DNA of 64,000 bases from Lactobacillaceae bacterium (lineage in GTDB: Bacteria > Pseudomonadota > Alphaproteobacteria > RF32 > CAG-239), in contig JAISVX010000003.1 of assembly GCA_031271345.1 (NCBI GenBank), forward strand, positions 437,223 to 501,222. The letters are read 5' to 3'. Numbering within the stretch: position 1 is the first letter of the stretch; each line of letters begins with the position of its first letter. The notes under the pieces are model-generated. The model saw only the letters and a list, made by a program, of their open reading frames with translations. It searched no databases and was not told where the DNA came from. The translations under genes and the position numbers were made by a program. Below are positions 9,339-33,797 of this stretch, one piece after another.

Positions 9339-9370
9339 AAAAAAAGGCACCGCAAGGGTGCCTTTTTTTA
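9339..9370. terminator. Rho-independent terminator directly downstream of tRNA-Ser(GCU)
   Basis: aaggcacc/gcaag/ggtgcctt hairpin flanked by an A-run and a T-run. Confidence 0.5.
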
Positions 9371-9371
9371 G

Positions 9372-9458: not shown

Positions 9459-9595
9459 ACAAATCATCAGTATGTTTATATCATCTTTTTTGGTTCGTCA
9501 ATATATTTTTAACTGCCGATAATCTTTTTTGCTTTATTAAATGCTTAAAAAAAGCTATGATATACATACCAAAAAATTATTAGGAGTTAGTGCTA

Positions 9596-10068
9596 TGGAC
9601 AAGGATATTATAATTGAACAATTTACCTCCAAACACATTGAAGGCGCCCTTGATATTCTTCAAGAATACGACCAGTTTCACCACGCCAGCGACCCAAAAC
9701 ATTTTAAAAACATGGATAAAGAAGAAGAGTTTAACTATCTAAAATGGATTTTAGAAGAAGACGGCAGCTATGGAATTGTCGCTACTAAAGATAATAAGGT
9801 TGTGGGTTTCGCCATATTCGGACTTCTATTAAAACCAAGCAACTTCGCTTCTCCAGAAGTTACATATATTTCGGAAATGGTCGTTAAGGACGGCTTTAGA
9901 AGCCGGGGTATCGGCGAAAAAATGCTGAAAAGAATTATAGAGTTCAGCAAAACCCGCGGCATAGATAAAATAGAACTGGAAATCACAAATGCAAACGAAC
10001 GCGGCATCGGGTTTTACAGAAGAACAGGATTTTATGATTATTCAAAAGTTATGTTTTTAGATATTTAA
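9596..10068 (+). CDS. GNAT-family N-acetyltransferase
   Basis: VVGFAIFG...RSRGIGEKMLKRIIEFSK...GFYRRTGF matches acetyl-CoA binding motif A (R/Q-x-x-G-x-G/A). An AGGAG ribosome-binding site lies 9 nt before the ATG at 9596. Confidence 0.75.
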
Positions 10069-10078
10069 CACCGAAGCA

Positions 10079-10744
10079 CTATTTTGCAAAAATATCCAAG
10101 GCTTCATTAATATCCTTAACTTTATAATCAACAAAAGGATATTTCTCTTTCTCGCCAGTTACCCATATTGTGGTCATGCCAAAATCTTTTGCTGTTTTTA
10201 AGTTCTTCAAACTATCTTCAATCATCGCTGTTTCAGCGGGGTTTATACTATATGTTCCAAAAAACTTTTCAAAAGATTTTTTATCTGGTTTTAGCATAAA
10301 ACCGCCATCTCTAATTGTAAAAACATCATCGAATAAGCCGCTTATTTTCAAATTTTTCAAAACACTGCCGACATGAGCGTGCGTACTGTTTGTATAGATT
10401 ATCTTATTATGCGGAAGGAGTGAAATTTTATTTTTCAAATTTTCATTATATTCAATCTCGGACACGTCAATATCGCAGACAAAATCCATAAAATGACCCG
10501 GATTAATTCCAAGCTCGACAATTGAGCTTATATCTGCGTCATTTCTGCTTTTCCATTGTTTAATAAGATTTTTAAAATCATCTTCGCTCATTTTTTGCTC
10601 GCAAAGAAAAAACTCTGCGATTTTATCGCCGAATCTTGCTTCAATATCAGGATTTTCCGAATACAAAGTCCCGTCTAAATCAAAAACCAAATTTCTTATA
10701 TGCTTTACCAAATTACTGCTCCAAAAACAAATCCACAGCTTCAA
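10079..10744 (-). CDS. HAD-superfamily phosphatase, pyrimidine 5'-nucleotidase-like (paralogue 1 of a tandem pair). True start may be a TTG at 10711
   Basis: VKHIRNLVFDLDGTLY contains HAD motif I (DxDGT). It shares about 40-45% identity with the upstream paralogue over its full length. Confidence 0.65.
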   Translation of the reverse strand: MKLWICFWSSNLVKHIRNLVFDLDGTLYSENPDIEARFGDKIAEFFLCEQKMSEDDFKNLIKQWKSRNDADISSIVELGINPGHFMDFVCDIDVSEIEYNENLKNKISLLPHNKIIYTNSTHAHVGSVLKNLKISGLFDDVFTIRDGGFMLKPDKKSFEKFFGTYSINPAETAMIEDSLKNLKTAKDFGMTTIWVTGEKEKYPFVDYKVKDINEALDIFAK

Positions 10745-11348
10745 TTATATCTTTCACGATGTAGTCACAAAAAGAAACGTCTTTTTCGCCGCCGTCAGTG
10801 ATTAAAACCGTTTTTATACCAAGTTCTTTCGCAGGCTGTAAATTCTTTACCCTGTCCTCAATTAAAACAGTCTCGTCAGGATTTAAATTATACTTTTCCA
10901 AGAGCATTTTATACGACGCCATATTCGGCTTCGGAACATAATCAGCCTCGCCAATAGTATAAAGTTCATCAAACATGCCGTTCAATCGAAGCCTTTCCAA
11001 AACATCAATAGTATGCTTCATGCTGCCGTTTGTATAAATTATTTTTCTATGCGAAAGGCGTTCCAGTTTTTTCTTTAGCTCGTCATTATATTCAACATCC
11101 GAAACATCCACATCGCCGGCATAATTCATATATGCCTTTGGGTCTCCGCCATATTCAGCGACGGCTGGAGTACAGCTCCCATGTTTTTTTCGCCATTCGG
11201 CAATCAAGACCATATAGTCATCAGCTATAATCCCCATTTCATCTCTGAAATACTCCACCATCTTATCAAGAAATCTTTGCTTGATTTCATCGGTTTCCGG
11301 ATACAAAGTCCCATCTAAATCAAAAACCAAATTTCTTATATGCTTCAC
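10713..11348 (-). CDS. HAD-superfamily phosphatase, pyrimidine 5'-nucleotidase-like (paralogue 2), GTG start
   Basis: MKHIRNLVFDLDGTLYPETD. It sits 4 nt downstream of the malQ stop, in the same operon as the glycogen genes. Confidence 0.7.
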   Translation of the reverse strand: MKHIRNLVFDLDGTLYPETDEIKQRFLDKMVEYFRDEMGIIADDYMVLIAEWRKKHGSCTPAVAEYGGDPKAYMNYAGDVDVSDVEYNDELKKKLERLSHRKIIYTNGSMKHTIDVLERLRLNGMFDELYTIGEADYVPKPNMASYKMLLEKYNLNPDETVLIEDRVKNLQPAKELGIKTVLITDGGEKDVSFCDYIVKDIIEAVDLFLEQ

Positions 11349-11352
11349 AAAA

Positions 11353-13509
11353 TTATCTTTCCATTTTAATAGCTTTTATGTTTCTGACAAACATTGCGCT
11401 ATCTTCCAAATCTTCCAAATCAACAGGAATTTTACGACGCCAGTTAGGGTGCTTATCCCTGTCTGTCCCAGGAAGGTTTTGCAGTTTTTCAACCTGCAGA
11501 ATATCCTCTAACTGAGCTAAGAAGACTTTTGAATTTGTTCTGGACATAAACCTGTGGACAGCCTCTTCAATTCCTTCTGGATATTTCTCGCCATATATAT
11601 AGTTTCCGCTGCGCATATTATCCCGCGGCCAAACGCCAGCATAGTCTAATGCGGATAAAAGCTTCCACCTGTCGTTTTCTCTTTTATGATAAGAATTGTT
11701 TTTTTCCTGCTCATTTGGTATGAGACCCAGATTGTATGACAATTCAATGTCATATCCAAACCACCACATTTTCAAAGGCGCCATATCATGGGTTCCGACA
11801 GAAACATACGAATCAACGGGATATTTATCCGGCGGTATAAAATCTCCCCAGCCCGCGCCGTATCTTTCCGCCCATAAAACGCTTAAGGATTTTATATTGG
11901 CATTGCCGAGCTTGTCTAAAAAACCATCGGGAACATTGCCGATACTCTCGCCGACAATCATACATTTATTAAGATGGCTTTCTATCATAACCACAGCCAT
12001 CATTTCATCCAAATTATACAAGACATAAGTGCCAAGTTCTTTGTGGTCTGGAATAATATAAAGCCTCATCAATGACATTACATGGTCGATACGAAGCGCG
12101 CCTGAAAACTTCATATTTGCCCGCAATATTTTTATAAAAGGCTCATACCCGGCATCTTCAAGCCTAAACGGATTAAACGCGCCAAGCCCCCATTTCTGCC
12201 CTGCGGGGAAAAATGCGTCCGGCGGCGCTCCCGCTCCGGCTCCTTCGATAAATGTACCGCTGTCTCCCCAAAGCTCCGCACTGTCTCCGCCTACCCCGAC
12301 AGCTAAATCTCTGTATAAACCGACAGCCAGGTTTTTTTCTTTAATTTTCCCATGAACCCCGTTTAACTGTCTGTCAAACTCAAACTGCAAAAACTTAAAG
12401 AAACCTATTCTGTCTTGATTTTCTTTCACATATTCAGCCACTTTTGGCGAATGAGGATTTTTATATTCTTCTTCCCAGGCTCTCCATCCGCCCCAAATTA
12501 CTTTTGATTTTTCTTCATACAAACATTGGAATATCGCAAGTTTATCAAGCTCGCTGCCTTTTTCCAAAAGATATTTTGAAAAGTCTAGTTTTCTCTCTTT
12601 ATTTGCGCTGTCCTTAAATCTTTTATAAGCTTTTTCCAAAACTGCCATTTTTGTTGGATAAACATACGAATATAAAATGGTTTCGCTGTCTCTGTATTTT
12701 TTTAATTTATCTTCTATTTCCGTTTTATCTTCAGGCAAAAACTCTGGAACTTTTTCGGCGTCAATATATATCGGATTTGAAAACAAACGACTGATTGAAG
12801 AATATGGGCTGGCATTTTCCGGGTAATCATGAAACAAAACATTCAGCGGATTTAATCCGATTACGGAAGCGCCGTTACTGCCGCAAATATCGATTAATGT
12901 TTCCAAATCTGTCAAGTCGCCGACGCCCCAGTTCCTTTTACTTTTTAACGAATATAGCTGAACGGCGACCCCCCAGAGTTTGCTATTGTTGACCACTTCT
13001 GATTCATAGCACCTGTCAGGCGCGACCGCTAACCTCGAAGAATAAATTTCGCTTCCGGCATTTACATATAAATCATAATATCCAATGTCCAAATCCGAAT
13101 TTATCCGAACAAAAAGCTTTACATAATCATTACCGTTTATTCTTTTTTCCTCTTTCAGACTTTCCACTTCATATCTTATCGTCGGAGAAGCTTTTGTATC
13201 AACATTCGCGATGCTTACGGTTAAAATTTCGTTTGCCGCAGACTTTGGCAGAACAATATCAAAAACAACATTACGAGGCTTAACAACGTAAATACCATTC
13301 AAAACCTTATGCCATCTTCTATCGTTAAATTTATTGATAGATTCGACGATTGACGCGTTATCATCAGCTTTGTATCCAAGTTTGCCAGCCAAAAAAGCAA
13401 TTACATCATCGTTGACTTCATAATCTTTAGCAACTAATCCCGCGTCTCTAAACTTAGTCAGGATACCAATTTTGTCCGCAAGCTCATGCAATTTATTCGA
13501 CATTAACAA
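11353..13509 (-). CDS. malQ: 4-alpha-glucanotransferase (amylomaltase, GH77)
   Basis: 718 aa. WGVAVQLYSLKS...NWGVGDLTDL and the GH77 core are present. Confidence 0.85.
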   Translation of the reverse strand: MLMSNKLHELADKIGILTKFRDAGLVAKDYEVNDDVIAFLAGKLGYKADDNASIVESINKFNDRRWHKVLNGIYVVKPRNVVFDIVLPKSAANEILTVSIANVDTKASPTIRYEVESLKEEKRINGNDYVKLFVRINSDLDIGYYDLYVNAGSEIYSSRLAVAPDRCYESEVVNNSKLWGVAVQLYSLKSKRNWGVGDLTDLETLIDICGSNGASVIGLNPLNVLFHDYPENASPYSSISRLFSNPIYIDAEKVPEFLPEDKTEIEDKLKKYRDSETILYSYVYPTKMAVLEKAYKRFKDSANKERKLDFSKYLLEKGSELDKLAIFQCLYEEKSKVIWGGWRAWEEEYKNPHSPKVAEYVKENQDRIGFFKFLQFEFDRQLNGVHGKIKEKNLAVGLYRDLAVGVGGDSAELWGDSGTFIEGAGAGAPPDAFFPAGQKWGLGAFNPFRLEDAGYEPFIKILRANMKFSGALRIDHVMSLMRLYIIPDHKELGTYVLYNLDEMMAVVMIESHLNKCMIVGESIGNVPDGFLDKLGNANIKSLSVLWAERYGAGWGDFIPPDKYPVDSYVSVGTHDMAPLKMWWFGYDIELSYNLGLIPNEQEKNNSYHKRENDRWKLLSALDYAGVWPRDNMRSGNYIYGEKYPEGIEEAVHRFMSRTNSKVFLAQLEDILQVEKLQNLPGTDRDKHPNWRRKIPVDLEDLEDSAMFVRNIKAIKMER

Positions 13510-13517
13510 CTCCCAAA

Positions 13518-15590
13518 TTATTTTCTAATTTCAAACAGCAAAACGCTCCATGCAGGAACATCTATCTTTTCGCCCGAAAGATTTTTCTTAACATTTTTCA
13601 TTTTCATCGAACTGTCAACAATAAGCTCCCAATTCATATTTCCCAAATCAGGCAGTTTCCATTTCAAGGTAACATAATTCGCATTAAGCATGAGATAAAT
13701 AAATTTGTTTCCATCATAAACCAAATATGAGAGTGATTTCTTGTCGCTGTTATACCAGTCATGTTCCGTAAACTCTATGCCGCGGCTGTTATACCAGGCA
13801 ATATCTTTATAATCATCCTTTATAACTTCGCCCGTAAAAAATTTCTTGCGGCTGAATATATTTAATTTTTGTCTTGTTTTTATAAGCTTGCGGACAAACT
13901 TTGCAAACTCTCTGTCCTCAGCGTTCACAGCTTCCCACGCAAACCAGGATATTACATTATCCTGGCAATAAGGATTATTATTTCCAAACTGTGTCTTTAA
14001 CAGTTCGTCGCCAGCCAAAATCATCGGCGTGCCAAAAGAAAACAACAAGGTTGACATCAATGCCCTTGCTCTTAACATCCTGTTTGTTAAAACCGTCTTA
14101 TTATCGGTTTCTCCTTCATGACCAGAATTCCAGCTGATATTATTATCGCTTCCGTCTCTGTTTTCTTCGCCGTTGGCAATATTATGCTTCTGGTTATAGC
14201 TGACTAAATCATTAAGACAAAAACCGTCATGAACAGTAATAAAATTTACGCTGCTCCACAAGTTTCGATGATTATAATTAAACACATCGCTTGAGCCTGC
14301 TATGCGGCTGGCAATAGGAGCTACCTGAGAGCCGTCGCCCTTCCAGAAAGACCTCGCGACATCTCTGTATTTGTCGTTCCATTCTGCCCATCCGGGCAAA
14401 AACGCGCCGACTTGATACCCGCCCAAATCCATATCCCAAGGCTCCGCAATAAGCTTTACTCTTGACAGCACAGGATCCTGCTTCACCGCCTGCATAAAAC
14501 CGCTGAGGCGGTCAAATACCATGTTAACTCTGGATAATGAAACGGCTAAATCAAAACGAAAACCATCAACATGCATTTCTTCAACCCAGTAGCGAAGCGA
14601 GTCCATAACAAGCTTCAAAACCTCGGGGTGCTGAACATTAAACGACGAGCCAACGCCCGTGCTGTCATAATAATGGCGTTTATTGTCGTGTTTTAACGTA
14701 TAATACGAGGCGTTATCTATGCCGCGGTAAGAGATAGTCGGTCCAAGATGGTTTCCCTCGCCGGTATGGTTATAAACAACGTCAAGGATTACCTCCAGCC
14801 CGTTTTTATGCATTGTTTTAACAAAATCTTTAAACTCGTCGATTTCGCCGTTTACTAAATATGACTGTTCCGGCGCAAAAAATGAAAAACTCTCATATCC
14901 CCAATAGTTATCCGTAATAAATCCTTTTTTATGACGATTGCCAAAGAAAGCATGAATAGGCAGCAGCTCGACAGAAGTAATTCCAAGCCACTTCAAATAT
15001 TTGGTTATCGCGGGATTGGTCATGCCCAGAAAGGTGCCTTTTTTGCTGTCGGGAACTTTTGGATGGAGCTTGCTGTAGCTTCTGACATGAGTCTCATAAA
15101 TAATCGTATTTTCAAAAGCGACGTCTGGAGATTTATCTCTGCCCCAATTATAACTATTAGCAACCACAACAGACTTCGGAACATAAGGAGCGCTGTCTAA
15201 TTCGCTAAAAGATAAATCTAAATCCGGGCTATCTGCATCATAGCCGAATATGGCTTTATCCCAGATTAATTTTCCGACAAGTTTTTTTGCGTAAGGGTCA
15301 AGAAGAAGCTTATGATGATTAAATCTGTGTCCTTCCATCGGCTTATATGGTCCATAAACCCTATAACCATATACCTGACCAGATTTCAGCCCCGGAATAT
15401 AAACATGCCAGATATTGTTTGTATTATCTTTCAGCTCATGGCGGTGAAGCTCTTTTGAACCGCTTTCGTTAAACAAACAAACTTCAATCTTGGTTGCATT
15501 GGCTGAGAAAATAGCAAAGTTTACACCTTCTCCATCAAAACTCGATCCTAAAGGATATGGTTTTCCAGATTTGGTTTTTACTTCCGCCAT
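13518..15590 (-). CDS. glgX: Glycogen debranching enzyme (isoamylase-type GH13)
   Basis: 690 aa. It has an N-terminal CBM48-like region, LDVVYNHTGEGN and GFRFDLA GH13 motifs. Confidence 0.85.
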   Translation of the reverse strand: MAEVKTKSGKPYPLGSSFDGEGVNFAIFSANATKIEVCLFNESGSKELHRHELKDNTNNIWHVYIPGLKSGQVYGYRVYGPYKPMEGHRFNHHKLLLDPYAKKLVGKLIWDKAIFGYDADSPDLDLSFSELDSAPYVPKSVVVANSYNWGRDKSPDVAFENTIIYETHVRSYSKLHPKVPDSKKGTFLGMTNPAITKYLKWLGITSVELLPIHAFFGNRHKKGFITDNYWGYESFSFFAPEQSYLVNGEIDEFKDFVKTMHKNGLEVILDVVYNHTGEGNHLGPTISYRGIDNASYYTLKHDNKRHYYDSTGVGSSFNVQHPEVLKLVMDSLRYWVEEMHVDGFRFDLAVSLSRVNMVFDRLSGFMQAVKQDPVLSRVKLIAEPWDMDLGGYQVGAFLPGWAEWNDKYRDVARSFWKGDGSQVAPIASRIAGSSDVFNYNHRNLWSSVNFITVHDGFCLNDLVSYNQKHNIANGEENRDGSDNNISWNSGHEGETDNKTVLTNRMLRARALMSTLLFSFGTPMILAGDELLKTQFGNNNPYCQDNVISWFAWEAVNAEDREFAKFVRKLIKTRQKLNIFSRKKFFTGEVIKDDYKDIAWYNSRGIEFTEHDWYNSDKKSLSYLVYDGNKFIYLMLNANYVTLKWKLPDLGNMNWELIVDSSMKMKNVKKNLSGEKIDVPAWSVLLFEIRK

Positions 15591-15608
15591 ACGTCAATCT
15601 CCCACAAA

Positions 15609-17849
15609 TTATCTAACTGGTTTAAGTATAATTGTCGATAACGGAGGTAAAGTAAGCCTTATTGAATACGGTTTGTAGTTCCATCCATCTTCTGAGGCAT
15701 GCAGTTCATTTTCGTTTTTGACTCCGCTTCCCCAATATTTTTTATCATCGCTGTTAAAAATTTCCTTAAACGAGCATTTTTCAATAACGCCGATTTTATA
15801 ATCATGCCTTACTACCGGCGTAAAGTTGCAGATAACGACAACATAATCGCCCGGCGTTCTGCCTTTTCGTATATACGAAACAACACTGTCATCCGCGTTT
15901 GAATGCTCTATCCACTCAAATCCCTGATAGTCGAAGTCCTGCTCATACAAAGCCGGATTGTCGCGATACGCGAAGTTTAAATCCCTGATATAGTCCTGCA
16001 TGCTCTTATACATTGGATATTCCAACAAGTGCCAGCGCAAACTTTCGTTGTAGTTCCATTCCCAGTCTTGTCCGAACTCGCAGCCCATAAACATCAGTTT
16101 TTTGCCAGGATGCGTAAACATAAATCCATAATAAGCCCTCATATTGGCAAATTTCTGCCATTCGTCCCCCGGCATTTTTGCAAGCATGGAACCTTTGCCG
16201 TGAACAACTTCATCATGAGAAATCGGCAGAATAAAGTTTTCATTAAAAGCATAAATCAACCCAAACGTGAGCAGACCATGATGATATTTTCTATGAATAG
16301 GGTTTTCGCTGATATAATGCAGCGTATCATTCATCCAGCCCATATTCCATTTATACCCGAAACCCAATCCTCCCATAGATGTCGGACGGGAAACCATCGG
16401 CCAAGCCGTTGACTCTTCCGCAACCATAACCGCGCCTTTATTATAACCATAAGCTATTTCATTCATGCGGCGTAAAAAAGATATTGCCTCCAGATTTTCG
16501 TTTCCGCCATAAATATTCGGAACCCACTCGCCAGCTTTGCGCGAATAATCCAAATACAGCATAGAAGCCACGGCATCAACTCTTAGACCGTCTATGTGAT
16601 ATTCTTTTAACCAGAACAATGCGCTCGCGCACAAAAAGTTGAACACCTCCGTACGTCCAAAATTATATATCATTGTTCCCCAGTCGGTATGCTCGCCTTT
16701 TTTGGGATCCGCATGCTCATACAAATGGGTTCCGTCAAACTCTGCCAAACCATGAATATCTTTAGGAAAATGCGCCGGTACCCAGTCCATAATCACGCTG
16801 ATTCCAGCCTGGTGGAATTTATCAATCATATACTTAAAATCTTCCGGGTTTCCAAAGCGGGATGTTGGAGCAAACATTCCTAATGTCTGATACCCCCATG
16901 AACCGTCAAACGGATGTTCTGTCAAAGGCAGAAACTCAATATGAGTATACCCCATATTGGTCACATAAGGAACTAATCTGTCTGCAAATTCGCGGTAAGA
17001 TAAATAATCTTCGCCAAACATTCCGTTGCGGCGCCATGAACCTAAATGCACTTCATAAATTGACATCGGCTGAGAAAAATCGTCCCTCGCTTCCCTTGCA
17101 TCCACCCATTCTTTATCCTGCCACTGATATTTATCAATATCAAAAACAACCGATGCGGTGTTTGGTCGTCTTTCCGAATAAAACCCTATAGGATCCGACT
17201 TTAGAAGAATATTATTTTTTGCGGTTTTAATTTCATATTTATAAACTTCGCCTTCGGTAATGCCGGGAATAAAAATGTCCCAAACTCCGCATGAAATATG
17301 TTTGCGCATTATATGCGTGCGACCGTCCCAGCCGTTAAAATCTCCGACGACGGAAACTCTTTTTGCATTAGGCGCCCAAACGGCAAAACTCACGCCTTTT
17401 ACGCCGTCTATTTCTATCAAATGAGCGCCGAGTTTTTTATATAATTCTAAGTGATTTCCCTCGCCTAAAAGATAGACGTCAATATCGCCCAAAGTCGCGG
17501 GAAAACGATATGTGTCTTCTTTAAAATATACATTGCCCAAATCATTCGTAATCTTAAACCTGTATTTAAAATTTTCCGACTGACCCAAGTTAATTTGGTA
17601 AAACCCTCTTTTATCTAATTTTGTCATTTTACCGATGACTTTTCCATCATAGTCTACGACTTCGACACCGTTGCTGCCGGGCTGATACGTTCTAATGTAT
17701 ACTTCTTTGCTGCCCTTGTCTTTATGAATGCCCAAAACAGAAAAAATGTTTTCATAATCGCCATTTATTATGGCGTCCATTTCACTATTAGATAAAGTCT
17801 TTTCCATCAGGTTTTTGCTCCCAAATAAGTCAGAAAAATAATTAAGCAT
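15609..17849 (-). CDS. glgB: 1,4-alpha-glucan branching enzyme
   Basis: 746 aa. [17 protein letters not shown] and the EES/ISHDEV GH13 branching-enzyme motifs are present. Confidence 0.9.
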
Positions 17850-20005: not shown

Positions 20006-20899
20006 ATGCACTATATTTTAATAAGTTTTCTCAGACCGTTTTTCTTCTCTCTTGCAAACATAATCGAGGGCAAACTTGCCAATACGACATTTAAGAAAAC
20101 AACGACAATGATTTTCTACATATCATTGATGAACTTTGCATTTCTGCCGCTGCTTTTATTTTTGGGAAGACCGACAATTCCGTCTTTTGAGGTTTTCTGC
20201 ATGCTGGCTTTTATCGGCGCCGTTGAAACAACATATTTATATCCATATTATATGGCGGTTAAAAAAATTGATGTCTCAATCGTAACCGCGCTGTTTTCTC
20301 TGGGACAGATTTCCATTCCCATAATGTCATTTTTTATCCTCGGCGAAAAGCTTCTCCCAACTCAGTATTTAGGGTTTTTTATCATAATCATCACATCGAT
20401 AATCTTAAGCATTGATAACCTTAAAATGCCCAAGCTCAATAAAGCCTTTTACTATATGACGGGCGTTTCGCTGCTGCTCTCATTTTATATGATTGTCGAA
20501 AAAAATATTCTAAACATTGATGACAACTGGATAAACGTAGCTTTTTATCCAACGCTTATTTCAGGACTTATCCCCTCTGTTTTTCTGCTAAAAAAAGACT
20601 GCAGAAAAGACATCGTAAAAGCCTTTCCACTTTATAAGAAAAACTTCAAACTAATGACACTAAACGAGCTTATCTGCTTTGGGGCCATAGTTGCGACCGC
20701 TTATGGGCTATCAGGGTTATCGCCGGTTGTTCTTGCCTCAATTGCGGCAACCGTGCCGATTTTTACTTTGGTTATCAGCTATATTCTGACAAAAGCTTTT
20801 AACGTTTACTGTATAGAGACATTAACAAAAAAAATAGTGTCAAAAAAGCTTGCCTGTTTTTGTTTTATTATTGCCGGGGTTGCCCTGGCAATTGGATAG
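20006..20899 (+). CDS. DMT-superfamily (EamA-like) transporter, about 10 TM segments; start codon uncertain (ORF opens at 19922)
   Basis: Two EamA-like repeats, for example YPYYMAVKKIDVSIVTALFSLGQISIPIMSFFILGEKL. The 3' end overlaps the convergent M48 gene by 32 nt. Confidence 0.6.
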   Translation: MHYILISFLRPFFFSLANIIEGKLANTTFKKTTTMIFYISLMNFAFLPLLLFLGRPTIPSFEVFCMLAFIGAVETTYLYPYYMAVKKIDVSIVTALFSLGQISIPIMSFFILGEKLLPTQYLGFFIIIITSIILSIDNLKMPKLNKAFYYMTGVSLLLSFYMIVEKNILNIDDNWINVAFYPTLISGLIPSVFLLKKDCRKDIVKAFPLYKKNFKLMTLNELICFGAIVATAYGLSGLSPVVLASIAATVPIFTLVISYILTKAFNVYCIETLTKKIVSKKLACFCFIIAGVALAIG

Positions 20900-21815
20900 T
20901 TTCCTGAATAAATGATGTTCTTTCTTTCAAACCAAAATCTTTTTCCAAAAATGATATTTTCTCCGCCAGATTCTCTCTGCCGATATATCTGTCATTTTCA
21001 GGATGACGCTTTTTCCATGCGTTTGCTTTCGCGGCAAATTTTTCTATCCGCTGCTCTAAGCTCGGATGACTTTGAAAATAGTCTTCAAGAATACTTAAAT
21101 GCGCATTCCTGTTTATTCCGTCGTACTCCAGCAAACTTTTGAAAGAATTTGACACAGCCATAATATCATAAGGACTGTTTTTTATCACCTCAAACGCATA
21201 ATCATCCGCCTCAGCCTCCTGAGTCTTTGAATAAGAATGCCTAAGCAATATATTTTGAGCGACATCGGCAACCTTGCCCAAACTTCCAAGATTAAGCTTC
21301 TTGGTCAAAATTTCGAACTTTACGGCATTAAAACAATGAGAATTTTCTATATGCCCAACCTCATGAGCGATAATCGCCATAAGTTCGCTCTCGGACTTCA
21401 CCGTCTTTAAAAGCGGCTGGGTGACGACTACAGCTCCTCCAGGGAGGGCATACGCGTTGGCTTCAAAAGTCTCCTCAACAAAAATCTCATAGTCAAACTT
21501 CTTATGCTTTGCCCACTCGGCATTTCTAAGAAGAGAATTCAAATAAGTCCTGTCCTTTTCCAGATGAGGATAATTATACTGTCTGTATCTTTTCTTTATC
21601 TCGTCGCCCAGCTCTTTCTCATCCATGCCGTCTATCGGCAGAATACTGCCAATTCCCCTGTTAGCGGAAGAAGTAACATTGCCAACGACCTGAAACACAT
21701 TCGAGAATGATATTTCATTGTTCATTGATTTGTTGGAAGCGGCAATATTAAAAAACACCGCCGCTCCGACAAAAATAAATATAACCAGCAAAAATATCAG
21801 CTTTTTACTTTTCAT
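20868..21815 (-). CDS. M48-family Zn-metallopeptidase with an N-terminal signal/anchor
   Basis: 315 aa. AHEVGHIENSH is an HExxH motif, and QEAEADDYAFEV supplies the third-ligand EAEAD motif characteristic of M48. The N-terminal 25 aa are a hydrophobic helix. Its start overlaps the upstream DUF2339 gene by 11 nt. Confidence 0.7.
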   Translation of the reverse strand: MKSKKLIFLLVIFIFVGAAVFFNIAASNKSMNNEISFSNVFQVVGNVTSSANRGIGSILPIDGMDEKELGDEIKKRYRQYNYPHLEKDRTYLNSLLRNAEWAKHKKFDYEIFVEETFEANAYALPGGAVVVTQPLLKTVKSESELMAIIAHEVGHIENSHCFNAVKFEILTKKLNLGSLGKVADVAQNILLRHSYSKTQEAEADDYAFEVIKNSPYDIMAVSNSFKSLLEYDGINRNAHLSILEDYFQSHPSLEQRIEKFAAKANAWKKRHPENDRYIGRENLAEKISFLEKDFGLKERTSFIQETIQLPGQPRQ

Positions 21816-24681
21816 AGCGGTACTTATATTTATTATAAATAGCGTTCATAGTAATTAAGATACAGCCGATTATAATAAATATAACCGCCTTAATCAGAAA
21901 ATCCTGACCACGTAAATCAAAAAACATTATTCTTATAAAAATCCCCGCCACACCGTACATTGAAACGACCCTGTATTCAGACCTTCCGATTATGATGCTA
22001 ATCATAAATAAAACAAAGCATTCAACCATCCAAAGAACAGATAAAATCGATTTATCAAATCCTCTGTATAAGAAAAACGCTATTGCCAAGAACAATGGAT
22101 AAATCAAAACTCTGGCGTCATATTTAACAAGAAGAGACTTAACGCTTAAAGCAAGCTTGTTAAGAGCGGCAAGCTCATTGCCCTCAATAAACGCAAGCTT
22201 CCTGTATGCCGACAACGCGAATATAACGGATAAAACAACTGTTATCATGCTTCTAAACCAAACCTGGTCATAAATAAGCCTTGACGGCGTCGCTGATGAC
22301 GAAGAAACGAAACCAACGTTTGCCAGCGCGATAAAAAACAACAAAAAACTGTACATTGTAACCCGATTATAACTGCCGAGCTTAGGACCGACAAACAGCG
22401 AAACAAGAGCAAGAATCGCAAACGCGGTGCCTTGTTCAACTATTCTTACTTCCGCAAAAATATAAAATGAAGCCAAAACCAAAAAGGCTTCAAGCATTCC
22501 GTTTATACATTTTTTTATATATTCGCCATTGAGTTTGGTTCCAAAAACCATCCAGTATACCAAAGCCAGCAAGCTTAATATCTCCGTTGCAAATCTTGCG
22601 GGCAGAACATCTAGAAGCATTGTATGATTGCCCAAGTCAACCAGGCAAAAACGAACAATAAATAATATGAAGCTTACTTTTGACAACATTGTAATCAAAT
22701 ATGCCGGACTTCCTTTTTCACCTGCGGGAACAGTATTTTTCCATAAAATTTCTTTTATATCGCTTCCAATAAGAAAAACAAGAAGCCACAGCACGCTTGT
22801 AAGCATTGTCGAATATGGAATGGTAAACTTATACGCCGCAAACATCAATAACGACCACAGAATTAGAATTCCCGATTTATAAGAATGGCGCTTAAGCTTC
22901 TCAGACCAGCTAAATCTCAGCATAGCCGCTCCTGTTATAATAACAATCGCGGCAAGTTCAACGTTTATCCATAAGTCGTATTTTTTGAAATAAATCAATA
23001 TCATATAATACGCGCTTGTTACAATAGCTATAAAAGCCACCGTGCTGTCAACAAGAGCATTTTTATAATATCCCTTAAAGAATATTGCCGACAGCCCCAT
23101 CAAAAATGCCGCTATAAACCATATACCGTTTGAAAGCGCAATTGCCGACGTCAGGTAAGCCGCGGTAATTATGTGCAGGGCAAAAAACAGATTCATAAAT
23201 GTTGACGTGCCTTTTTGCGCGGTGTCATCAATTTCAAAACCATAAGCCTCTCTTCTTGCAAAATTCTCTATAGACGGATACAAAACAATATTTACAACAT
23301 AGCTTGTGATAATATACATAAACATTTCCTTGTCTACTGTCTCGCTAAGGAAAAGAAGCGGTATAAAGACAATATAGCCGATAAGGACCACAAAGTTATT
23401 TATATTAAATACCATCTTGTTTTTTACATAAGTATTCAGCTTTAAGAATATTACCGAGAAAATAGAAGCATAAAATGCCATTTGATAATATTCAAAATCA
23501 AATTTATAAAGCGAAGTGCAGGTTAAAACGCCCAAAGCCAGCGATACCATCCTATCGCATACATAAAGCCACTCCGCTTTAATTTTATTGCCATAGTAAG
23601 AGAGAGCAAACGTTGCAAAAGCGCCTATTCCCAAGCCTATTGTACTCCAAATGCTTCCTCTGGAATGAATATAAAGATTTATACCAAGCGCTGCCCAAAT
23701 TATAATATGGCTTATTAACGCCTTATTGTCCCAGCCCTGATATATTTTGCGATAATGGCTGAGAATACACGGCAAAGCAACAAATAAACATAAGGCGATA
23801 GTCAGCGCGTATGGCGACGGCCAAACAGTATAATAGTTCATAGCCCAAAAAATATTAAGCAGCATAAAAGACGCGTTTACCACCGCTATATGAACATCCC
23901 ACTTCCTGCTGCCCAGCGTCATTAACATGCCGATAAAACAGATTGCCGCCGCAATTACAAACGACAAGTATGTAAACGGAATCAACAGTAGAGCAAACAA
24001 ACTTAACACAACATGAACCGTTGCAAACAGCTCTTTTTTGCTTAAAGCGCCAAAAGCAATATTTACAAAAACACCCAAAACAATAAACAGCCATGCCTGC
24101 ATATCGTCATATATCCACTTCATGTATGTAAACTGGGAAGCGCCTATACATCCGACAAGAAAAACGACTCCCGAGGCAGTTCTCAGCCATAGAGCGATAC
24201 TTTCCCAAAAAGAATATCTTTTCAATGACAAATACAAACCATAGAAAAACACGGAAAAGCCGCAAACAACTATAAACCGCGCGAGTGGTCCCATATTAAT
24301 CGCGGCGTAAATCGCCAAAAAGATTATACCGATTATAACTGCGGTAACGCCTATAACTCCTGTAGCATTTCCGGCAAAAAGTTTTTCAAGTTTTGCCCAA
24401 AAAGACACTTTCTCTTCGACGCGGGGAGATTTTGGCTGTTTTGGCGCCGCCGGCTTTTTAACCGACTCACGAACTACTTCTTCAATAATTATTTCAGCTT
24501 TCTTTTCTTCAATAATCATCTCAGCCTTAACCTTATTAGTTTTTGCCTGTCCTTTGAGAGCCTGTTTCATATTGGCAAGCTCATCCTCAAGCTTATTAAT
24601 TCTTAGATTGGCTTTATTAATGGAGCCATTAATCGAGATAACCGCTAAGAAAAACACCACTACCAGTATAGATACTACCAT
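21805..24681 (-). CDS. DUF2339-like large polytopic membrane protein
   Basis: 958 aa. It has an N-terminal TM segment, then a coiled coil (NKLEDELANMKQALKGQAK), then a Pro/Lys-rich linker (KKPAAPKQPKSPRVEEK), then at least 25 hydrophobic helices. No catalytic motif is recognisable. Confidence 0.55.
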   Translation of the reverse strand: MVVSILVVVFFLAVISINGSINKANLRINKLEDELANMKQALKGQAKTNKVKAEMIIEEKKAEIIIEEVVRESVKKPAAPKQPKSPRVEEKVSFWAKLEKLFAGNATGVIGVTAVIIGIIFLAIYAAINMGPLARFIVVCGFSVFFYGLYLSLKRYSFWESIALWLRTASGVVFLVGCIGASQFTYMKWIYDDMQAWLFIVLGVFVNIAFGALSKKELFATVHVVLSLFALLLIPFTYLSFVIAAAICFIGMLMTLGSRKWDVHIAVVNASFMLLNIFWAMNYYTVWPSPYALTIALCLFVALPCILSHYRKIYQGWDNKALISHIIIWAALGINLYIHSRGSIWSTIGLGIGAFATFALSYYGNKIKAEWLYVCDRMVSLALGVLTCTSLYKFDFEYYQMAFYASIFSVIFLKLNTYVKNKMVFNINNFVVLIGYIVFIPLLFLSETVDKEMFMYIITSYVVNIVLYPSIENFARREAYGFEIDDTAQKGTSTFMNLFFALHIITAAYLTSAIALSNGIWFIAAFLMGLSAIFFKGYYKNALVDSTVAFIAIVTSAYYMILIYFKKYDLWINVELAAIVIITGAAMLRFSWSEKLKRHSYKSGILILWSLLMFAAYKFTIPYSTMLTSVLWLLVFLIGSDIKEILWKNTVPAGEKGSPAYLITMLSKVSFILFIVRFCLVDLGNHTMLLDVLPARFATEILSLLALVYWMVFGTKLNGEYIKKCINGMLEAFLVLASFYIFAEVRIVEQGTAFAILALVSLFVGPKLGSYNRVTMYSFLLFFIALANVGFVSSSSATPSRLIYDQVWFRSMITVVLSVIFALSAYRKLAFIEGNELAALNKLALSVKSLLVKYDARVLIYPLFLAIAFFLYRGFDKSILSVLWMVECFVLFMISIIIGRSEYRVVSMYGVAGIFIRIMFFDLRGQDFLIKAVIFIIIGCILITMNAIYNKYKYRYEK

Positions 24682-24698: not shown

Positions 24699-27600
24699 TT
24701 ATTTATTGTTCCAAACAGAATCTTTAACGTATGCGCTGAAACCCCATTTAATCCATTTAACAAAATATACTGCCAGCCATGTAGACCAGATAACCATGAA
24801 ACACCTATACATCCATACAGGCAAAGATATGATTTTTGGCATTGGCAAAGCCCCCATTGTTACATCCTGATACCATGTAAGCTTTAAAAACTCTCCAGAA
24901 ACATAAGAGTTTCCAGTAATCCTCATGCTCCAGCTGCCGAGCAAGCCGCTGTATATTCCGCTAAACAAGCTGTATACGAACAACAATGTTAAAAAAGGTA
25001 TTGCCAGCTGGAATAATTTCTTAAACTTAAGCCCATCGGAAAATTTGTCTCTGACGCCTAAAGCAATGAACCATATTATGATTATAACCATAAACAGCAG
25101 GCTGGTCTGGGTTAAACCCAAAAGCAGGATAAACCACTGGGCAAAGCTCAACGGAGCAGCTTTATATCTGCTTAAAACAAAAGCGATAATCAGCCATGCC
25201 GGTATCATGCTCCAAAACAGTACGGAAGGTCCTTTAGTTGGTCCGCTGGTAAATAAAACCCATCTGCTCAAAGGCACCTGCGCCGATTGTGTTATATTAA
25301 CCGCAGGAGCTGTTAAATCAAACTCTGGAAACTTGACATAACTGCCTAGTTTGTTCTTTATTGACGCCTTGAAGGAAATGCTGTTGCTTCCTTGAACGAC
25401 AGGAACGGCAAGTTTATTGCCGTTAACTGTCACTGGATATTGTCTGCCCTCAACAATAAGCTCCTTAACCTCTGCGTTTTCAGGGATTGTAATATCGTGA
25501 ACCCCCGCGTCGGACGCTCTCATATTAAGCGATATATTCGCGTCAATAACGCCTCTTCCATAAGAAATATTGTAGTCAACCTTATCAAAGGTAATAACAT
25601 ATCCGTCAACATTGCTTGGTCTGAAGATTTTAAACTCCAAACTTTCTCCGGCATTTGGCTTGAACGAAATATTATTATCATTTGAAACAGTTGGAGTCAG
25701 ACCAGAATATTTAAAACTCCAGGTATAATCAACATTAAAAGTCCACTCTTCTTTATAATTATTAATTTTTACCGGCGATTTTAAGATAATGTCCTGCTCC
25801 ACGGGAAGAAGAGAAACAAAGCTTTTTGCACTCTCTCTCGGCGCAAAGGAGATTCTAATTTTTCCAGATGTCAGCGTGCCGTCGGTATCAATTACTTTTT
25901 CACCTTCAAGCAAGGGAACCTCAATAGTCGCAGCTTCCGACAGGTTATTTGTTCGAACGACATTGGTTGAAACCTGCCACATCGCGCTAATATCAAAGTT
26001 TCTTTTTACGACAAAGAAAGTATCAATATCCATTTTTGACAACTCTGATGTTTTTCTTACAGCCGCAACTTTTTTCATACGGTTAATTTGAAAAGTCTGG
26101 CTGCCGGATTTATTTTCGCTAAATGACAAACCGTCAAGTTTTCCTTCCGCATGATTAATTCTAATCTTTGACGAAAGTATGAACCTATCGGTGTTTTCAT
26201 CCAGCACATAGTTCATCTCAATATCGTTAATACCCTTATTTATTAAAACGAAAATGCCGTCGTCTTTTTTCAAAGTATTTTTGGCTTCCGCTTTATTAAG
26301 ATTAATGCCGCTGAGTCTTACAAAACCAGAGCCGTCCGCTCTAAGAACAGGCAGCGGAACCACCAGAGTTTCGTTACTGTGAAAGTTTATTTTAACCGTA
26401 ACATTATCGCCATTATTATAAATCACGCCGTCAGGAATAGAAACGCATTCAGGCAGACATGAAGGCACATATTCTCTGGTCAGTTTATCCTCCATTTTCT
26501 TTATGACTTCGCTTGAAGGAATTATATCTTCAGCCTTTGCGTTTAAAGGGTTAAGAAGCATTAAGCCTAAGATAGAAGCCGTGAAAAGTTTTTTCATAAC
26601 GCCGTTTCCTTTTTCACCAAAATTAGGTTTTACATTTTTTGCGTCAAACAGCCAAATCAGAGCAAATATAACCAAAGCTGCTCTTAAAAAGGCTAAAATG
26701 ATGTTTACGCATGGCGACAATAGATAAAGCTTAAAATTATCTCCCTCAACAACAGGACCTTTGATAAACAGTCTTATCGACGAGTTGTAATCGCTCCATG
26801 TCGGAAATCCCACGCCGGTTTGAGCGACGTTTCTCGCAACATTTATGCTTTGATATTTTTTCATGCTGGAATCATTAAGAAGTTTCTGGTTCAGGTTTGA
26901 CGCTTTATTTTTTGCGAGACCGGCAATCGATTTTTTAAGGTCGCCTCTTTCTTTATAATATCCGTCGTCATAGTCATAATCAGCCGCTGCCATTTCCTCG
27001 ACAAACTCATAAGACTGTGCAACCATGGGAGCCGAAGATCTCATTACGCCGCTCACGCCATAAGATCCGCCTCCGGCAAAGGTGTTATCGGCATATCCCG
27101 TTACACCCATATAGTAAATTCCGTTTATAACCGCAAAAACAACTGCCGAACAAATAAAAGTTATAATAAACACGCCGATTGTGTATAAAACTTTTCGCCA
27201 TGTCTCATAAGTATGATTTGCAAATATTCTGTATATTATATATCCAACCAAAGAATATACATAAAAATAGATAAGGAACTTATAGCTTATAAATACCATA
27301 AACATTGATCCCATACCCATATCTAAAGATGGATATATTGCCCCTCTAAGATGTTTTACAACAAATACAAACACCGCGATTGATAAAAATGCAAGCAGCG
27401 TATATCTGATATAAGAAACAAAACCGTATATTTTTATGTCGGGCTTAATGTTCCTCTGCAGGAATAAAAGACCGCAAAGCACAAACGCAAGCGTTGTAAA
27501 CTGCGGAAATATCGGGTGCAGCAATGCCAAAAGAACCAATCCTAAAAAGGCTCTTGCAAAACCAAACAGATAGAAGAAACACACTGTAAGCAAAGCTACA

Positions 27601-29063
27601 ATAAACACGCTGAGCAGGTTCCAGTTGCTTACCCATGAATTTGAAACCGTATCCACTCCAGAAGCATAAAACAGCTTATATCCGGGAGCCAGCTCTAAAT
27701 TCCAGCTGACATTATTAAACTCTCTGTCATATCCTGCCGCCGGTATGCTTTTTTCATTCTCAACCCTTAGAACATTTGTAATATTCACCTGTCCTTTTCT
27801 AACCTCTATCCCAGGCTCCTTGTTTTGAGAAGTATATGTAATCGCCTGAGGCTCGGAATTTATGCTTGAAGAATAAAACTTAAACGGAGGTTTCAATAAA
27901 AGCCTGCCGTCTTCTTTAAAGTCCGCGTTTATATTGTCTTGAATAGAATAAAAACTGCCGTCGAAAGAAAGCTTGATATTTCTGTTTAAGACTAAGCTGT
28001 CCAGATTTTTATTATCATAGCTTATGGCTTTTAAGGTAAAACTTTGGTTTTTGTTAACCTCATAGGCTGGAAGCCTTTTCCACTCGCTGGGCATAGGAAC
28101 ATTTTGTGTTTGAACGCTGTGCAGACTCAATGGAGCCTGAATAACTCTTCTTGATTTATCGCTTTCAAAAACCCAAATCTCCTGCTCAACGGGAGAATTA
28201 TCCAAAACAAAATCCAAACTATCATTATTTTGGCGCAGCATAATATCAACATTTGAATAACCGGGTTTAACCTCGGCAATCAAATCTCCATTTTTTTGAA
28301 CATATATGGATAAACTGGAGTTAATGCTGGATAGAGAAAAGTTCTGGGGAATAATCCTGCCAAGGTTCTCAACCCTTTCTTTTCCCGTTACATTAAGGTT
28401 CAGCCTGACAGTCATCATAACGGGAATATTATCGGTAATTTTTCTGTAAACAAAAACGCTTAAATCATCTGTTTCGCTTTTAGCTGTCGACTGGGTTTCC
28501 AAACGCAGAACGCCGCTGTAATCAATAGCCGGGTTGGCAACGGCAATACCTTGTTTTTTAATGTTTAGTATCGCGGCATTATTGGGAATAAACAAATATC
28601 TGACTTCTTCTTTAGATTTTAATTTACCCTCAATTTTATATTCGCCCTTATCAAGGTAGACATAAGGTCTTCCGGCGCGCGAGATTATATTCATATTTTT
28701 GCCGTCAACCCAGACATTTACAGGAAAAACCTCTACAGAGCCTGGAAGCAGAACATATCCTTTATCCAAGATTTTAACATCTTGAACAAAATCCGCCTCT
28801 TTTCCATTAATATCAATATCAAGATTTGAAATATAATAACAGTATTTATCATTATAGTTATTATACGCAAAGTCGCATTTGCTCTTTTCCGTACCGTCCA
28901 AACTCCATACCGTCCAGTCTTTCAGAACATTTGGAAGATTTTCTTTAACAAAAACCTCTGGTTTTTTAGGCTCCAGAACAAAAGAAGAATCCGCAGACGC
29001 ATGATTAGCCAATACTGTAAAAGACAGTAAAAGAGCTAAAGATAAAGCTATAATTTTTCGCAT
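24699..29063 (-). CDS. Giant (1454 aa) exported polytopic membrane protein, probably a fusion of two ancestral genes
   Basis: A signal peptide MRKIIALSLALLLSFTVLANHASA is followed by a ~460-aa hydrophilic beta-rich region, a TM cluster (residues 480-660), a second TM segment (780-806), then an internal signal-peptide-like MKKLFTASILGLMLLNPLNAKA at residue 823 preceded by an AAGGA ribosome-binding site, a ~420-aa hydrophilic region and a C-terminal TM bundle. No known catalytic motif is visible. Confidence 0.5.
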   Translation of the reverse strand: MRKIIALSLALLLSFTVLANHASADSSFVLEPKKPEVFVKENLPNVLKDWTVWSLDGTEKSKCDFAYNNYNDKYCYYISNLDIDINGKEADFVQDVKILDKGYVLLPGSVEVFPVNVWVDGKNMNIISRAGRPYVYLDKGEYKIEGKLKSKEEVRYLFIPNNAAILNIKKQGIAVANPAIDYSGVLRLETQSTAKSETDDLSVFVYRKITDNIPVMMTVRLNLNVTGKERVENLGRIIPQNFSLSSINSSLSIYVQKNGDLIAEVKPGYSNVDIMLRQNNDSLDFVLDNSPVEQEIWVFESDKSRRVIQAPLSLHSVQTQNVPMPSEWKRLPAYEVNKNQSFTLKAISYDNKNLDSLVLNRNIKLSFDGSFYSIQDNINADFKEDGRLLLKPPFKFYSSSINSEPQAITYTSQNKEPGIEVRKGQVNITNVLRVENEKSIPAAGYDREFNNVSWNLELAPGYKLFYASGVDTVSNSWVSNWNLLSVFIVALLTVCFFYLFGFARAFLGLVLLALLHPIFPQFTTLAFVLCGLLFLQRNIKPDIKIYGFVSYIRYTLLAFLSIAVFVFVVKHLRGAIYPSLDMGMGSMFMVFISYKFLIYFYVYSLVGYIIYRIFANHTYETWRKVLYTIGVFIITFICSAVVFAVINGIYYMGVTGYADNTFAGGGSYGVSGVMRSSAPMVAQSYEFVEEMAAADYDYDDGYYKERGDLKKSIAGLAKNKASNLNQKLLNDSSMKKYQSINVARNVAQTGVGFPTWSDYNSSIRLFIKGPVVEGDNFKLYLLSPCVNIILAFLRAALVIFALIWLFDAKNVKPNFGEKGNGVMKKLFTASILGLMLLNPLNAKAEDIIPSSEVIKKMEDKLTREYVPSCLPECVSIPDGVIYNNGDNVTVKINFHSNETLVVPLPVLRADGSGFVRLSGINLNKAEAKNTLKKDDGIFVLINKGINDIEMNYVLDENTDRFILSSKIRINHAEGKLDGLSFSENKSGSQTFQINRMKKVAAVRKTSELSKMDIDTFFVVKRNFDISAMWQVSTNVVRTNNLSEAATIEVPLLEGEKVIDTDGTLTSGKIRISFAPRESAKSFVSLLPVEQDIILKSPVKINNYKEEWTFNVDYTWSFKYSGLTPTVSNDNNISFKPNAGESLEFKIFRPSNVDGYVITFDKVDYNISYGRGVIDANISLNMRASDAGVHDITIPENAEVKELIVEGRQYPVTVNGNKLAVPVVQGSNSISFKASIKNKLGSYVKFPEFDLTAPAVNITQSAQVPLSRWVLFTSGPTKGPSVLFWSMIPAWLIIAFVLSRYKAAPLSFAQWFILLLGLTQTSLLFMVIIIIWFIALGVRDKFSDGLKFKKLFQLAIPFLTLLFVYSLFSGIYSGLLGSWSMRITGNSYVSGEFLKLTWYQDVTMGALPMPKIISLPVWMYRCFMVIWSTWLAVYFVKWIKWGFSAYVKDSVWNNK

Positions 29064-33110: not shown

Positions 33111-33797
33111 CTATTCATCTTCTGGAACAGCGTTCTCAACAATGATTTGATTATTTCTTTCGGTCGATACGGTTACAGTTTCCAAATCTTCTAAAAACCA
33201 TGTTATGTCCCCGTCATTGCTGTTTATCATATCCGCAAACCGATTCCTATAAGTAAGGATAAAACTTGTCTCGGCAATTTTAAGATCGGTAAGCATAATG
33301 TTGCCATTTTTTTCGTGCAGCCTGAACTCAACCAGAATACTTGCATTCTCAGGACTGTCAGGCTTGCTGTTTTCCAACGCTTTCAAAGTTATATTAGCCA
33401 AAACCAAAGTATAATCTTTTTCTTCCAAAGCTTTTACTATCTCATATTCGATTGTATCTTCATCAAACTGCAGCGGATAACTTTTATACAAAGCCAAAGA
33501 ATATCTTTTAAACAAAGGAACATAAAATTCTCTTTGTTTTGGAGTCATCATTCTCCAATATTTTCCCATGACAAATTGCGCGACATGGTCTAAATCGACA
33601 TAGTTCAGGAACAAATCATCAAGTACTTGATATTTTTCAACCACATCGCCGTTTGCCAAGGCGCTGATAAGGGCTTTTCCTTTTTCTTCGCTCCATTCGC
33701 GGGCTTTTTCAGCGGAAACAGACGCGGCGTTAACTCCCGTTGTGAGAAAAATACTCATACAAAAGATAATAAGTTGTAAAAAATACTTACTTTTCAT
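33111..33797 (-). CDS. MlaC/Ttg2D-like periplasmic phospholipid-binding protein
   Basis: 228 aa. It has a signal peptide, and the length and helical pattern (for example KYWRMMTPKQREFYVPLFKRY) are typical of the toluene-tolerance Ttg2D family. Confidence 0.55.
   Translation of the reverse strand: MKSKYFLQLIIFCMSIFLTTGVNAASVSAEKAREWSEEKGKALISALANGDVVEKYQVLDDLFLNYVDLDHVAQFVMGKYWRMMTPKQREFYVPLFKRYSLALYKSYPLQFDEDTIEYEIVKALEEKDYTLVLANITLKALENSKPDSPENASILVEFRLHEKNGNIMLTDLKIAETSFILTYRNRFADMINSNDGDITWFLEDLETVTVSTERNNQIIVENAVPEDE

Follow-up and report, generated by a model that had tools for sequence, protein, structure and literature searches.

A conserved internal signal peptide, probably cleaved, in a family of duplicated-module bacterial membrane proteins

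Does a gene with an apparent second start in its middle make one protein or two? The window analyzed here, a 64,000-nucleotide (nt) stretch of contig JAISVX010000003.1 (assembly GCA_031271345.1, positions 437,223 to 501,222 of the forward strand), raises this question. On its minus strand, positions 24699-29063 form one continuous open reading frame (ORF) of 1454 amino acids (aa), and the ORF list and the translation show no stop between the two halves. The in-frame ATG at 26597-26595 is codon 823 of this ORF. The minus-strand DNA at the junction contains ggtgaaaaaGGAaacggcgttATGaaaaaactt, positions 26620-26560 read ggtgaaaaaGGAaacggcgtt ATG aaaaaactt, and translation from this ATG gives MKKLFTASILGLMLLNPLNAKAEDII, a putative signal peptide (MKKLFTASILGLMLLNPLNAKA/ED; here and below the slash marks the predicted cut) that continues as EDII. 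An earlier sequence-only reading had singled out this ATG with its signal peptide, together with a transmembrane (TM) helix (residues 779-809) and a basic tail (residues 810-822) upstream and no stop between the halves, and we recovered all of these. The Shine-Dalgarno (SD)-like AAGGA that it had placed 6-7 nt before the ATG is present at 26611-26607, but its end lies 9 nt 5′ of the ATG. Fusion of two ancestral genes by stop-codon loss, a sequencing error, or a locus with two products had been offered as explanations. The overall reading that we find best, and hold to be probable, is that the segment starting at residue 823 acts internally as an obligatory export signal that type I signal peptidase (SPase I) probably cleaves, giving two proteins from one gene.

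A single gene across the family

The first-pass homologue set comprised 21 proteins, with aligned identities down to 21%, and every one was a long single protein of 1343-1454 aa. An exhaustive search with the C-half returned 1871 cluster representatives (clusters at 50% identity), 1156 of them at E <= 1e-30; among the best 150 of the 1871, most were 1300-1560 aa long and matched the C-half query with their second half. When 80 loci were fetched from the 450 species-representative genomes that encode a relative, the N-module and the C-module shared one uninterrupted frame at 78, and the remaining 2 ended at contig edges. The single-ORF genomes include complete isolate genomes of Methylobacter and Methylocaldum, and the labels of the fused-ORF genomes span six phylum-level groups or more. 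Carriers occur among methanotrophs, sulfur oxidisers, sulfate reducers and myxobacteria: cultured ones include Methylobacter, Methylovulum, Methylocaldum, Methyloglobulus and Crenothrix, with Methylobacter luteus, Methylovulum miyakonense HT12 and Methylocaldum sp. GT1BB as examples, and metagenome-assembled genomes (MAGs) include Thiothrix, Thiodiazotropha, Desulfobacterales, Myxococcota and Alphaproteobacteria.

Searches with the N-half returned full-length proteins only, and no two-gene arrangement was found. Candidate split forms were rejected: the gene of P0097 ends at its contig edge, and five proteins of intermediate length (P0195, P0202, P0203, P0212 and P0223) come from fused genes whose calls lack the N-terminal part. 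One of them, P0202, has 1075 aa and lies on a 922-kb contig; it starts in the middle of the N-module, at profile position 295, and may represent a frameshift, a pseudogene or a miscalled start.

The junction itself would fit an account in which a sequencing or assembly error, or the loss of a stop codon, joined two adjacent genes, because a TM helix with a basic tail resembles a natural C-terminus and is followed by an SD-like motif, an ATG and a signal peptide. Since the ORF is single and uninterrupted in all 21 homologues, in most of the best 150 representatives and in 78 of the 80 genomes, with the N-half finding only full-length proteins, we exclude a sequencing error or a recent stop-codon loss, and the probability that we leave to such an artefact or recent event is negligible. 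The locus is one real gene; error, recent fusion and gene nesting do not account for it. Judged by the homologues, the fusion is older than the whole family.

Searches of Pfam and NCBIfam with the 1454-aa protein gave no family assignment, none of the 21 members matched Pfam even at E <= 1, and a PDB sequence search with the 1454-aa protein found no relative of solved structure. The names given by the source, 'TMEM181/wntless family' (P0004) and 'acyltransferase' (P0001), correspond to no Pfam or NCBIfam match in the window protein or the aligned members. Our literature search found no paper on the family of this protein.

Module homology and the internal signal peptide

A direct BLASTP comparison of the two halves gave no match (best E 0.67). 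Profile-profile alignment (hhalign) matched positions 7-576 of the N-half with 4-549 of the C-half at 98.7% probability and E 1.9e-16, over 515 collinear columns; the reversed-profile control gave E 0.19 over 26 columns. The alignment pairs one signal peptide with the other, Cys63/Cys75 with Cys869/Cys873, several strand motifs and the first four TM helices. The demonstrable repeat stops after the fourth helix, and homology of the module tails (N-module 735-822, C-module 1375-1454) was unsupported (E 0.21 over 11 columns). Because the halves are ancient paralogues, the protein is a tandem duplication-fusion. The profile alignments leave us in little doubt that the modules were duplicated and that the internal signal peptide is homologous to the first; in this alignment it is the counterpart of the N-terminal one. 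The proposal that two ancestral genes had fused is borne out in that paralogues were joined, but not in its timing, since the fusion predates the family.

AF2 models of residues 441-1454 (pLDDT 73) and 1-700 (pLDDT 74) gave two all-beta periplasmic domains with a helical bundle after each. When the PDB was searched with Foldseek, each module independently found Ost1/ribophorin I as its best fold (E 1e-7 for module 2 and 2.9e-5 for module 1); no Wntless structure was among the PDB fold matches of the two modules. Ost1, the lumenal subunit of the eukaryotic oligosaccharyltransferase, shares with the window protein tandem beta-sandwiches that lie on the non-cytoplasmic face and are anchored by TM helices. 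In contrast, there is no sequence similarity between them, TM-scores are low (0.1-0.29), and Ost1 has a single TM helix within a eukaryotic complex whereas the window modules have TM bundles. Membership of the Pfam family Ribophorin_I was rejected, as the match is one of fold by Foldseek and no member matched in Pfam. The models thus suggest a resemblance of fold only, and say nothing firm on function.

At 25-30% identity the layout of the junction is kept: a TM helix, a basic loop, a short hydrophobic core, a small-x-small motif and the next domain, which has the conserved start [DE]-x-P...LL-x-EL...C-x-P-x-C. Junctions of methanotroph isolates read, for example, KAHA/DFP, KAYA/DYP and PAHA/DFP, and the sequence right after AxA is DFPDQAMLDELR in Methylobacter and EDIIPSSEVIK in the window. 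In 126 full-length representatives, AxA was present at 66% of the junctions, at 47% of the N-terminal signal peptides of the same proteins and at 11% of other hydrophobic segments; the corresponding values for small-x-small were 93, 86 and 50%. Among the 78 species genomes, 46 have AxA at the junction. Family-wide, the loop preceding the core has a mean of 3.6 K+R vs. 0.9 D+E. The hydrophobic (h-) region of the junction has a median length of 15 aa (interquartile range 13-19), similar to the 16 aa of the N-terminal signal peptides (p 0.82), and is shorter than the adjacent TM helix (median hydrophobic length 21; p 6e-10). A short h-region separates cleaved signal peptides from uncleaved signal anchors, according to one study (PMC2120157).

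Segment 823-844 thus shares with ordinary N-terminal Sec/SPase I signal peptides a basic n-region, a short h-region (~12-16 residues in the ordinary ones), small uncharged residues at -3/-1, and a c-region that is polar or has a helix-breaking Pro. It differs in its location, which is not N-terminal on the polypeptide but starts at residue 823 of a continuous ORF. In the AF2 models the junction helix has a pLDDT of 45-54, close to that of the N-terminal signal peptide (34-51), vs. 76-86 for the neighboring TM helix. As judged from this conservation, the signal peptide at 823-844 is real and far from a chance resemblance; its architecture is kept across the family, and it is under selection as the signal peptide of module 2. 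The segment would be a functional internal export signal inherited from the ancient duplication.

In one clade the proteins have 603-656 aa and contain only the C-module; Ca. Magnetoglobus, Ca. Magnetomorum and Magnetomoraceae are the sources of its named members. These proteins begin with the junction segment as their N-terminal signal peptide (MKLSFTKNVLTIILSVILVSHNAMA/DYP), whose ends read AMA/DYP, VLA/DFP and VNA/EIP. A stop-rich intergenic region of 795 bp precedes the gene at locus L007, and no N-module was detectable within up to 10 kb of the stand-alone genes at L007, L008, L090 and L091. In a midpoint-rooted neighbor-joining tree, which is rough, the clade sits at a depth of ten nodes and every successive sister group is fused; being nested among fused forms, it would have arisen by loss of the N-module. 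This use of the segment indicates that the internal segment, once at the N-terminus, was a competent export signal and that the C-module can stand alone.

At L091 the stand-alone gene (10001-11926) lies directly downstream of a PBP1c-type protein (7447-9873; Transgly, Transpeptidase and BiPBP_C). The arrangement, found at one locus only, is reminiscent of the pairing of pbpC with alpha-2-macroglobulin and might point to a role in the cell envelope.

Proposed export and cleavage, and the alternatives

We infer a topology, an export-initiating role, a cleavage and an association of the two products as follows. The large inner-membrane protein family arose by ancient tandem duplication and fusion of one module, consisting of a signal peptide, a Cys pair, a ribophorin-I-like periplasmic beta domain and a TM bundle. 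The N-terminal signal peptide would be cleaved (ASA/D) and domain 1 placed in the periplasm. After the module 1 helices, helix 784-806 would return the chain to the cytoplasm, with the basic loop 810-822 next, and segment 823-844 would re-engage the Sec translocon N-in/C-out, leading to export of the ~430-aa domain 2. SPase I (LepB) would then cut after A844, giving membrane proteins of ~90 kDa (residues 25-844) and ~70 kDa (residues 845-1454), and the two fragments would act together as a pseudo-heterodimer.

Lying 822 residues into the chain and after about seven TM helices, the segment must act as an internal signal for re-initiation of export. Within the predicted topology, an N-in/C-out orientation would fit the helix predictions, the positive-inside loop and the Cys-pair beta domain downstream. 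The organism is a diderm, in that the window encodes MlaC, a BepA-like M48 peptidase and SppA. A cut after A844 is probable because the short h-region and the AxA c-region are conserved, and cleavage is favored because these hallmarks are kept as in true signal peptides and AF2 packs the segment without confidence. Taking the conserved motifs together, we see the balance as tipped slightly towards SPase I cleavage after A844.

The protein might instead stay a single 1430-aa polypeptide, with the segment as the second helix of an uncleaved TM hairpin. This reverse signal-anchor would initiate translocation of domain 2 and then remain in the membrane, and AxA would be an evolutionary leftover or a structural feature. 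The modules are indeed always found in one ORF, yet a leftover motif should have decayed at 25-30% identity, and AxA is ~6-fold and small-x-small ~2-fold commoner at the junction than at other hydrophobic ends, with frequencies as in true signal peptides. The h-region has the length of true signal peptides and falls below that of the neighboring TM helix, and AF2 does not pack the segment confidently. An adjoining dedicated SPase gene, found in only 1 of about 90 loci, would also suit the hairpin. We consider this hairpin unlikely, while giving it real weight. The one case is a Peptidase_S26 gene at L006 (12340-12969), immediately downstream of P0018, which we rejected as a dedicated signal peptidase: phmmer found none beside a family gene elsewhere, and because the arrangement was unseen at the window and at every other fetched locus, the adjacency is probably a coincidence.

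Several observations weigh against cleavage as a rule for the family and against parts of the proposed topology. The junction h-region is >=19 aa long in 28% of members and strict AxA is missing in 34%, so that some members may keep an uncleaved TM helix; both figures fit the hairpin. The low pLDDT of the segment may just reflect the shallow, 21-sequence alignment, and the conservation of AxA-[DE]-x-P could in part be structural, at the point where domain 2 begins. Predicted helices and charge bias suggest that the chain crosses the membrane an even number of times before residue 779. The Met and the SD-like motif are kept in six of the eight sequences that are >=49% identical (window included), and some internal initiation may occur in the window's own clade.

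The significance of the ATG depends on its surroundings. At the junction AAGGA arises from the codons gaa aaa gga (E-K-G) in a loop rich in Lys and Gly whose protein sequence is conserved, and AAA and GGA are common codons in the 39% G+C sequence of the window; the SD look-alike is therefore explained by a conserved E/K-K-G loop read with the genome's preferred codons. Of the 420 internal in-frame ATGs in probable genes of the window, 40 (9.5%) are preceded by an SD-like tetramer at a distance of 4-11 nt, and an SD-like motif precedes 15 of the 41 mechanically called gene starts. Within the 1454-aa ORF there are 29 internal Met, and AAGGA occurs 8 times on the coding strand, the background for this motif being 1.13 per kb. 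No sigma-70-like promoter was found on the coding strand upstream of the internal ATG. The aligned position is Met in the window, P0002, P0003, P0005, P0006 and P0007, Leu (CTG) in P0004 and Ile in P0008; the Met is missing from more distant members, and CTG, TCG or CGG replaces its codon at L002, L005 and L006. A Met <=6 residues from the hydrophobic core occurs in 16 of the 126 full-length representatives (13%) and in 9 of the 78 species genomes (12%), which equals the chance rate of ~13% estimated from ~2% Met over seven positions, so that a Met near the junction is not a conserved start.

It is very likely that codon 823 is no conserved internal translation start. The ATG and AAGGA are by-products, and the Met merely falls in the n-region in the window's clade. 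Of the signals that the downstream gene was said to have kept, the export signal was found and the translation signals were not. Ribosomes might still start at ATG 26597 by way of AAGGA in the window's clade and make, besides the long protein, a separate C-module of 632 aa that is exported. The spacing of 9 nt, the Met and the basic pair after it, kept in the window and the same five relatives, and a G-rich purine run upstream at L001 and L004 as well would serve such a start, and a stand-alone C-module is viable in nature. The loss of the Met in P0004, P0008 and all remoter members, the chance-like family rate, the codon-forced look-alike that many internal ATGs share, the lack of a promoter-like site and the paucity of SD-like motifs at putative gene starts of the window make it improbable. 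Two products from the locus are likely in another way, by proteolysis at AxA, as the conserved motif suggests; an internal start as the conserved mechanism is unsupported. The comparison with orthologues, which the sequence-only reading had called for, cuts both ways, with ORFs uniformly single and the Met unconserved, and the signal peptide conserved.

Feature layout, neighborhood and precedents

Table 1. Predicted features of the 1454-aa protein and their window coordinates. Each paralogous module consists of a signal peptide, a Cys pair, a ~440-aa all-beta periplasmic domain and a TM bundle.
Feature	Residues	Window position	Strand	Evidence
Two-module ORF, 1454 aa	1-1454	24699..29063	-	ORF list, translation; full-length homologues 1343-1454 aa; uninterrupted in 78/80 species genomes
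Module 1 N-terminal signal peptide, MRKIIALSLALLLSFTVLANHASA/D	1-24	28992..29063	-	Sequence; profile alignment with the internal one
Module 1 periplasmic all-beta domain, conserved Cys63/Cys75	25-480	27624..28991	-	AF2 model; invariant columns
Module 1 TM cluster	481-654	27102..27623	-	Predicted helices; hhalign alignment reaching residue 576
Linker	655-778	26730..27101	-	Model confidence; consensus motif
Long TM helix preceding the junction	779-809	26637..26729	-	Kyte-Doolittle scan value 2.71; AF2 model
Short basic cytoplasmic loop, Lys-rich, DAKNVKPNFGEKGNGV	810-822	26598..26636	-	Sequence
Internal signal peptide of module 2	823-844	26532..26597	-	Alignment to N-terminal signal peptide; family conservation
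Module 2 periplasmic all-beta domain, conserved C869-x-P-x-C873	845-1277	25233..26531	-	AF2 model
Module 2 TM bundle	1278-1454	24702..25232	-	AF2 model helices/strands

In AF2 model m36b7ded21352 the module 1 strands lie at 64-457, with pLDDT mostly 80-93. The module 1 helices in the models are 483-500, 502-515, 520-538, 544-576, 594-615 and 621-654; the first four are homologous to module 2 helices and two extra helices follow. The start of the linker (residues ~651-750) is acidic/Tyr-rich and poorly conserved, with pLDDT 24-37, and at its end the family consensus has a conserved YQS..KN..QTG.GFP.W motif and then two short strands. Its acidic, Tyr- and Gly-rich stretch (26784-27101 minus, residues ~655-760, containing EEMAAADYDYDDGYY) is found in module 1 only. 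The TM helix before the junction spans model positions 344-366 (protein 784-806) and would run from periplasm to cytoplasm in the modeled topology. The internal signal peptide has MKK as n-region, LFTASILGLMLL (12 aa) as h-region and NPLNAKA as c-region, with the predicted SPase I site at A844/E845 and A842-K-A844 as the -3/-1 motif. Module 2 strands occupy model positions 434-833 (protein 874-1273) at pLDDT of about 80-90. The module 2 TM bundle has four helices (model positions 843-859, 867-876, 882-904 and 908-932), a periplasmic beta hairpin (strands 945-975), a final helix (976-1006) and a Lys-rich C-terminal tail. Three overlapping terminator-like hairpins were called inside the ORF at 26326-26364 (minus), ~230 nt 3′ of the internal ATG; shuffles led us to expect 0.8, and they are probably one chance hairpin.

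The gene at 21805-24681 (minus), which starts 17 nt after the stop of the 1454-aa ORF, encodes a polytopic membrane protein of 958 aa whose N-terminus is a coiled coil. This protein had no Pfam or NCBIfam match and no sequence relation to the 1454-aa protein. Its gene overlaps by 11 nt the next one, for an M48 peptidase of the BepA/LoiP type (20868-21815, minus). The order of giant gene, a 978-aa gene and M48 recurs at L001 and not at remoter loci, and we found no conserved operon context, as gene order was common to the window and L001 only and differed at L002, L004, L005, L006, L007, L090 and L091. A glycogen-metabolism cluster occupies 11353-17849 (minus), with a GH77 4-alpha-glucanotransferase, a GlgX-like debranching enzyme and the branching enzyme GlgB, which flanks the locus at L001 as well.

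The source labels P0001, which is identical to the window protein, 'MAG: acyltransferase [Lactobacillaceae bacterium]'. The nearest relatives are labeled Alpha- or Deltaproteobacteria MAGs. Since the window carries diderm markers (MlaC at 33111-33797, the BepA-like M48, SppA at 47813-49627) and these relatives have proteobacterial labels, the Lactobacillaceae label looks wrong, and so does the product name.

Processing at internal signal peptides is routine for polyproteins of viruses and organelles, for example those of flaviviruses and thylakoid pre-PsbY. In these systems the internal signal peptide directs the topology of the next unit and marks the cleavage site, as proposed here; they use a peptidase of the endoplasmic reticulum (ER) or the thylakoid, whereas the window protein, from a chromosomal bacterial gene, would use LepB. 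Bunyavirus glycoprotein precursors likewise have internal signal peptides that type I signal peptidases cleave, as one paper states (PMC7926653).

By analogy, the closest bacterial precedent is FbcH. Cleavable internal signal peptides in bacterial chromosomal genes are, to our knowledge, only anecdotal, with FbcH as the textbook case. This Bradyrhizobium cytochrome b/c1 precursor is reportedly encoded by one ORF with an internal signal peptide, and its cleavage is said to have been demonstrated. Like the window gene, it is one bacterial ORF with two membrane-protein units and a Sec-type signal peptide after the last TM helix of the first unit. Its cleavage gives two polypeptides that work together, which for the window protein is proposed by inference. 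The proteins joined in FbcH are unrelated, and most bacteria encode them separately. In contrast, the units of the window family arose as paralogues by internal duplication and are normally fused, and the lone C-module occurs in one derived lineage only. Both cases have autonomous units around an internal signal peptide, and here these are paralogous, one of them occurring alone in nature.

The family, uncharacterized and Pfam-less, consists of ~1400-aa proteins whose two periplasmic domains are ribophorin-I-like, and it is common among methanotrophs and bacteria of the sulfur cycle. Its genes also call for caution in annotation, in that signal-peptide predictors inspect N-termini only and gene calling may divide these genes or misplace their starts. 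We give an even chance to the view that the whole family (at least 1871 clusters at 50% identity, 450 species genomes) forms a two-subunit inner-membrane complex from a single ORF through LepB cleavage at the conserved internal signal peptide. Should this hold, the family would far exceed in size any other natural class of bacterial polyproteins processed by signal peptidase; it would be derived from a duplicated ribophorin-I-like module, and it would offer a natural system in which SecYEG/YidC hands an internal signal to LepB within a polytopic protein.

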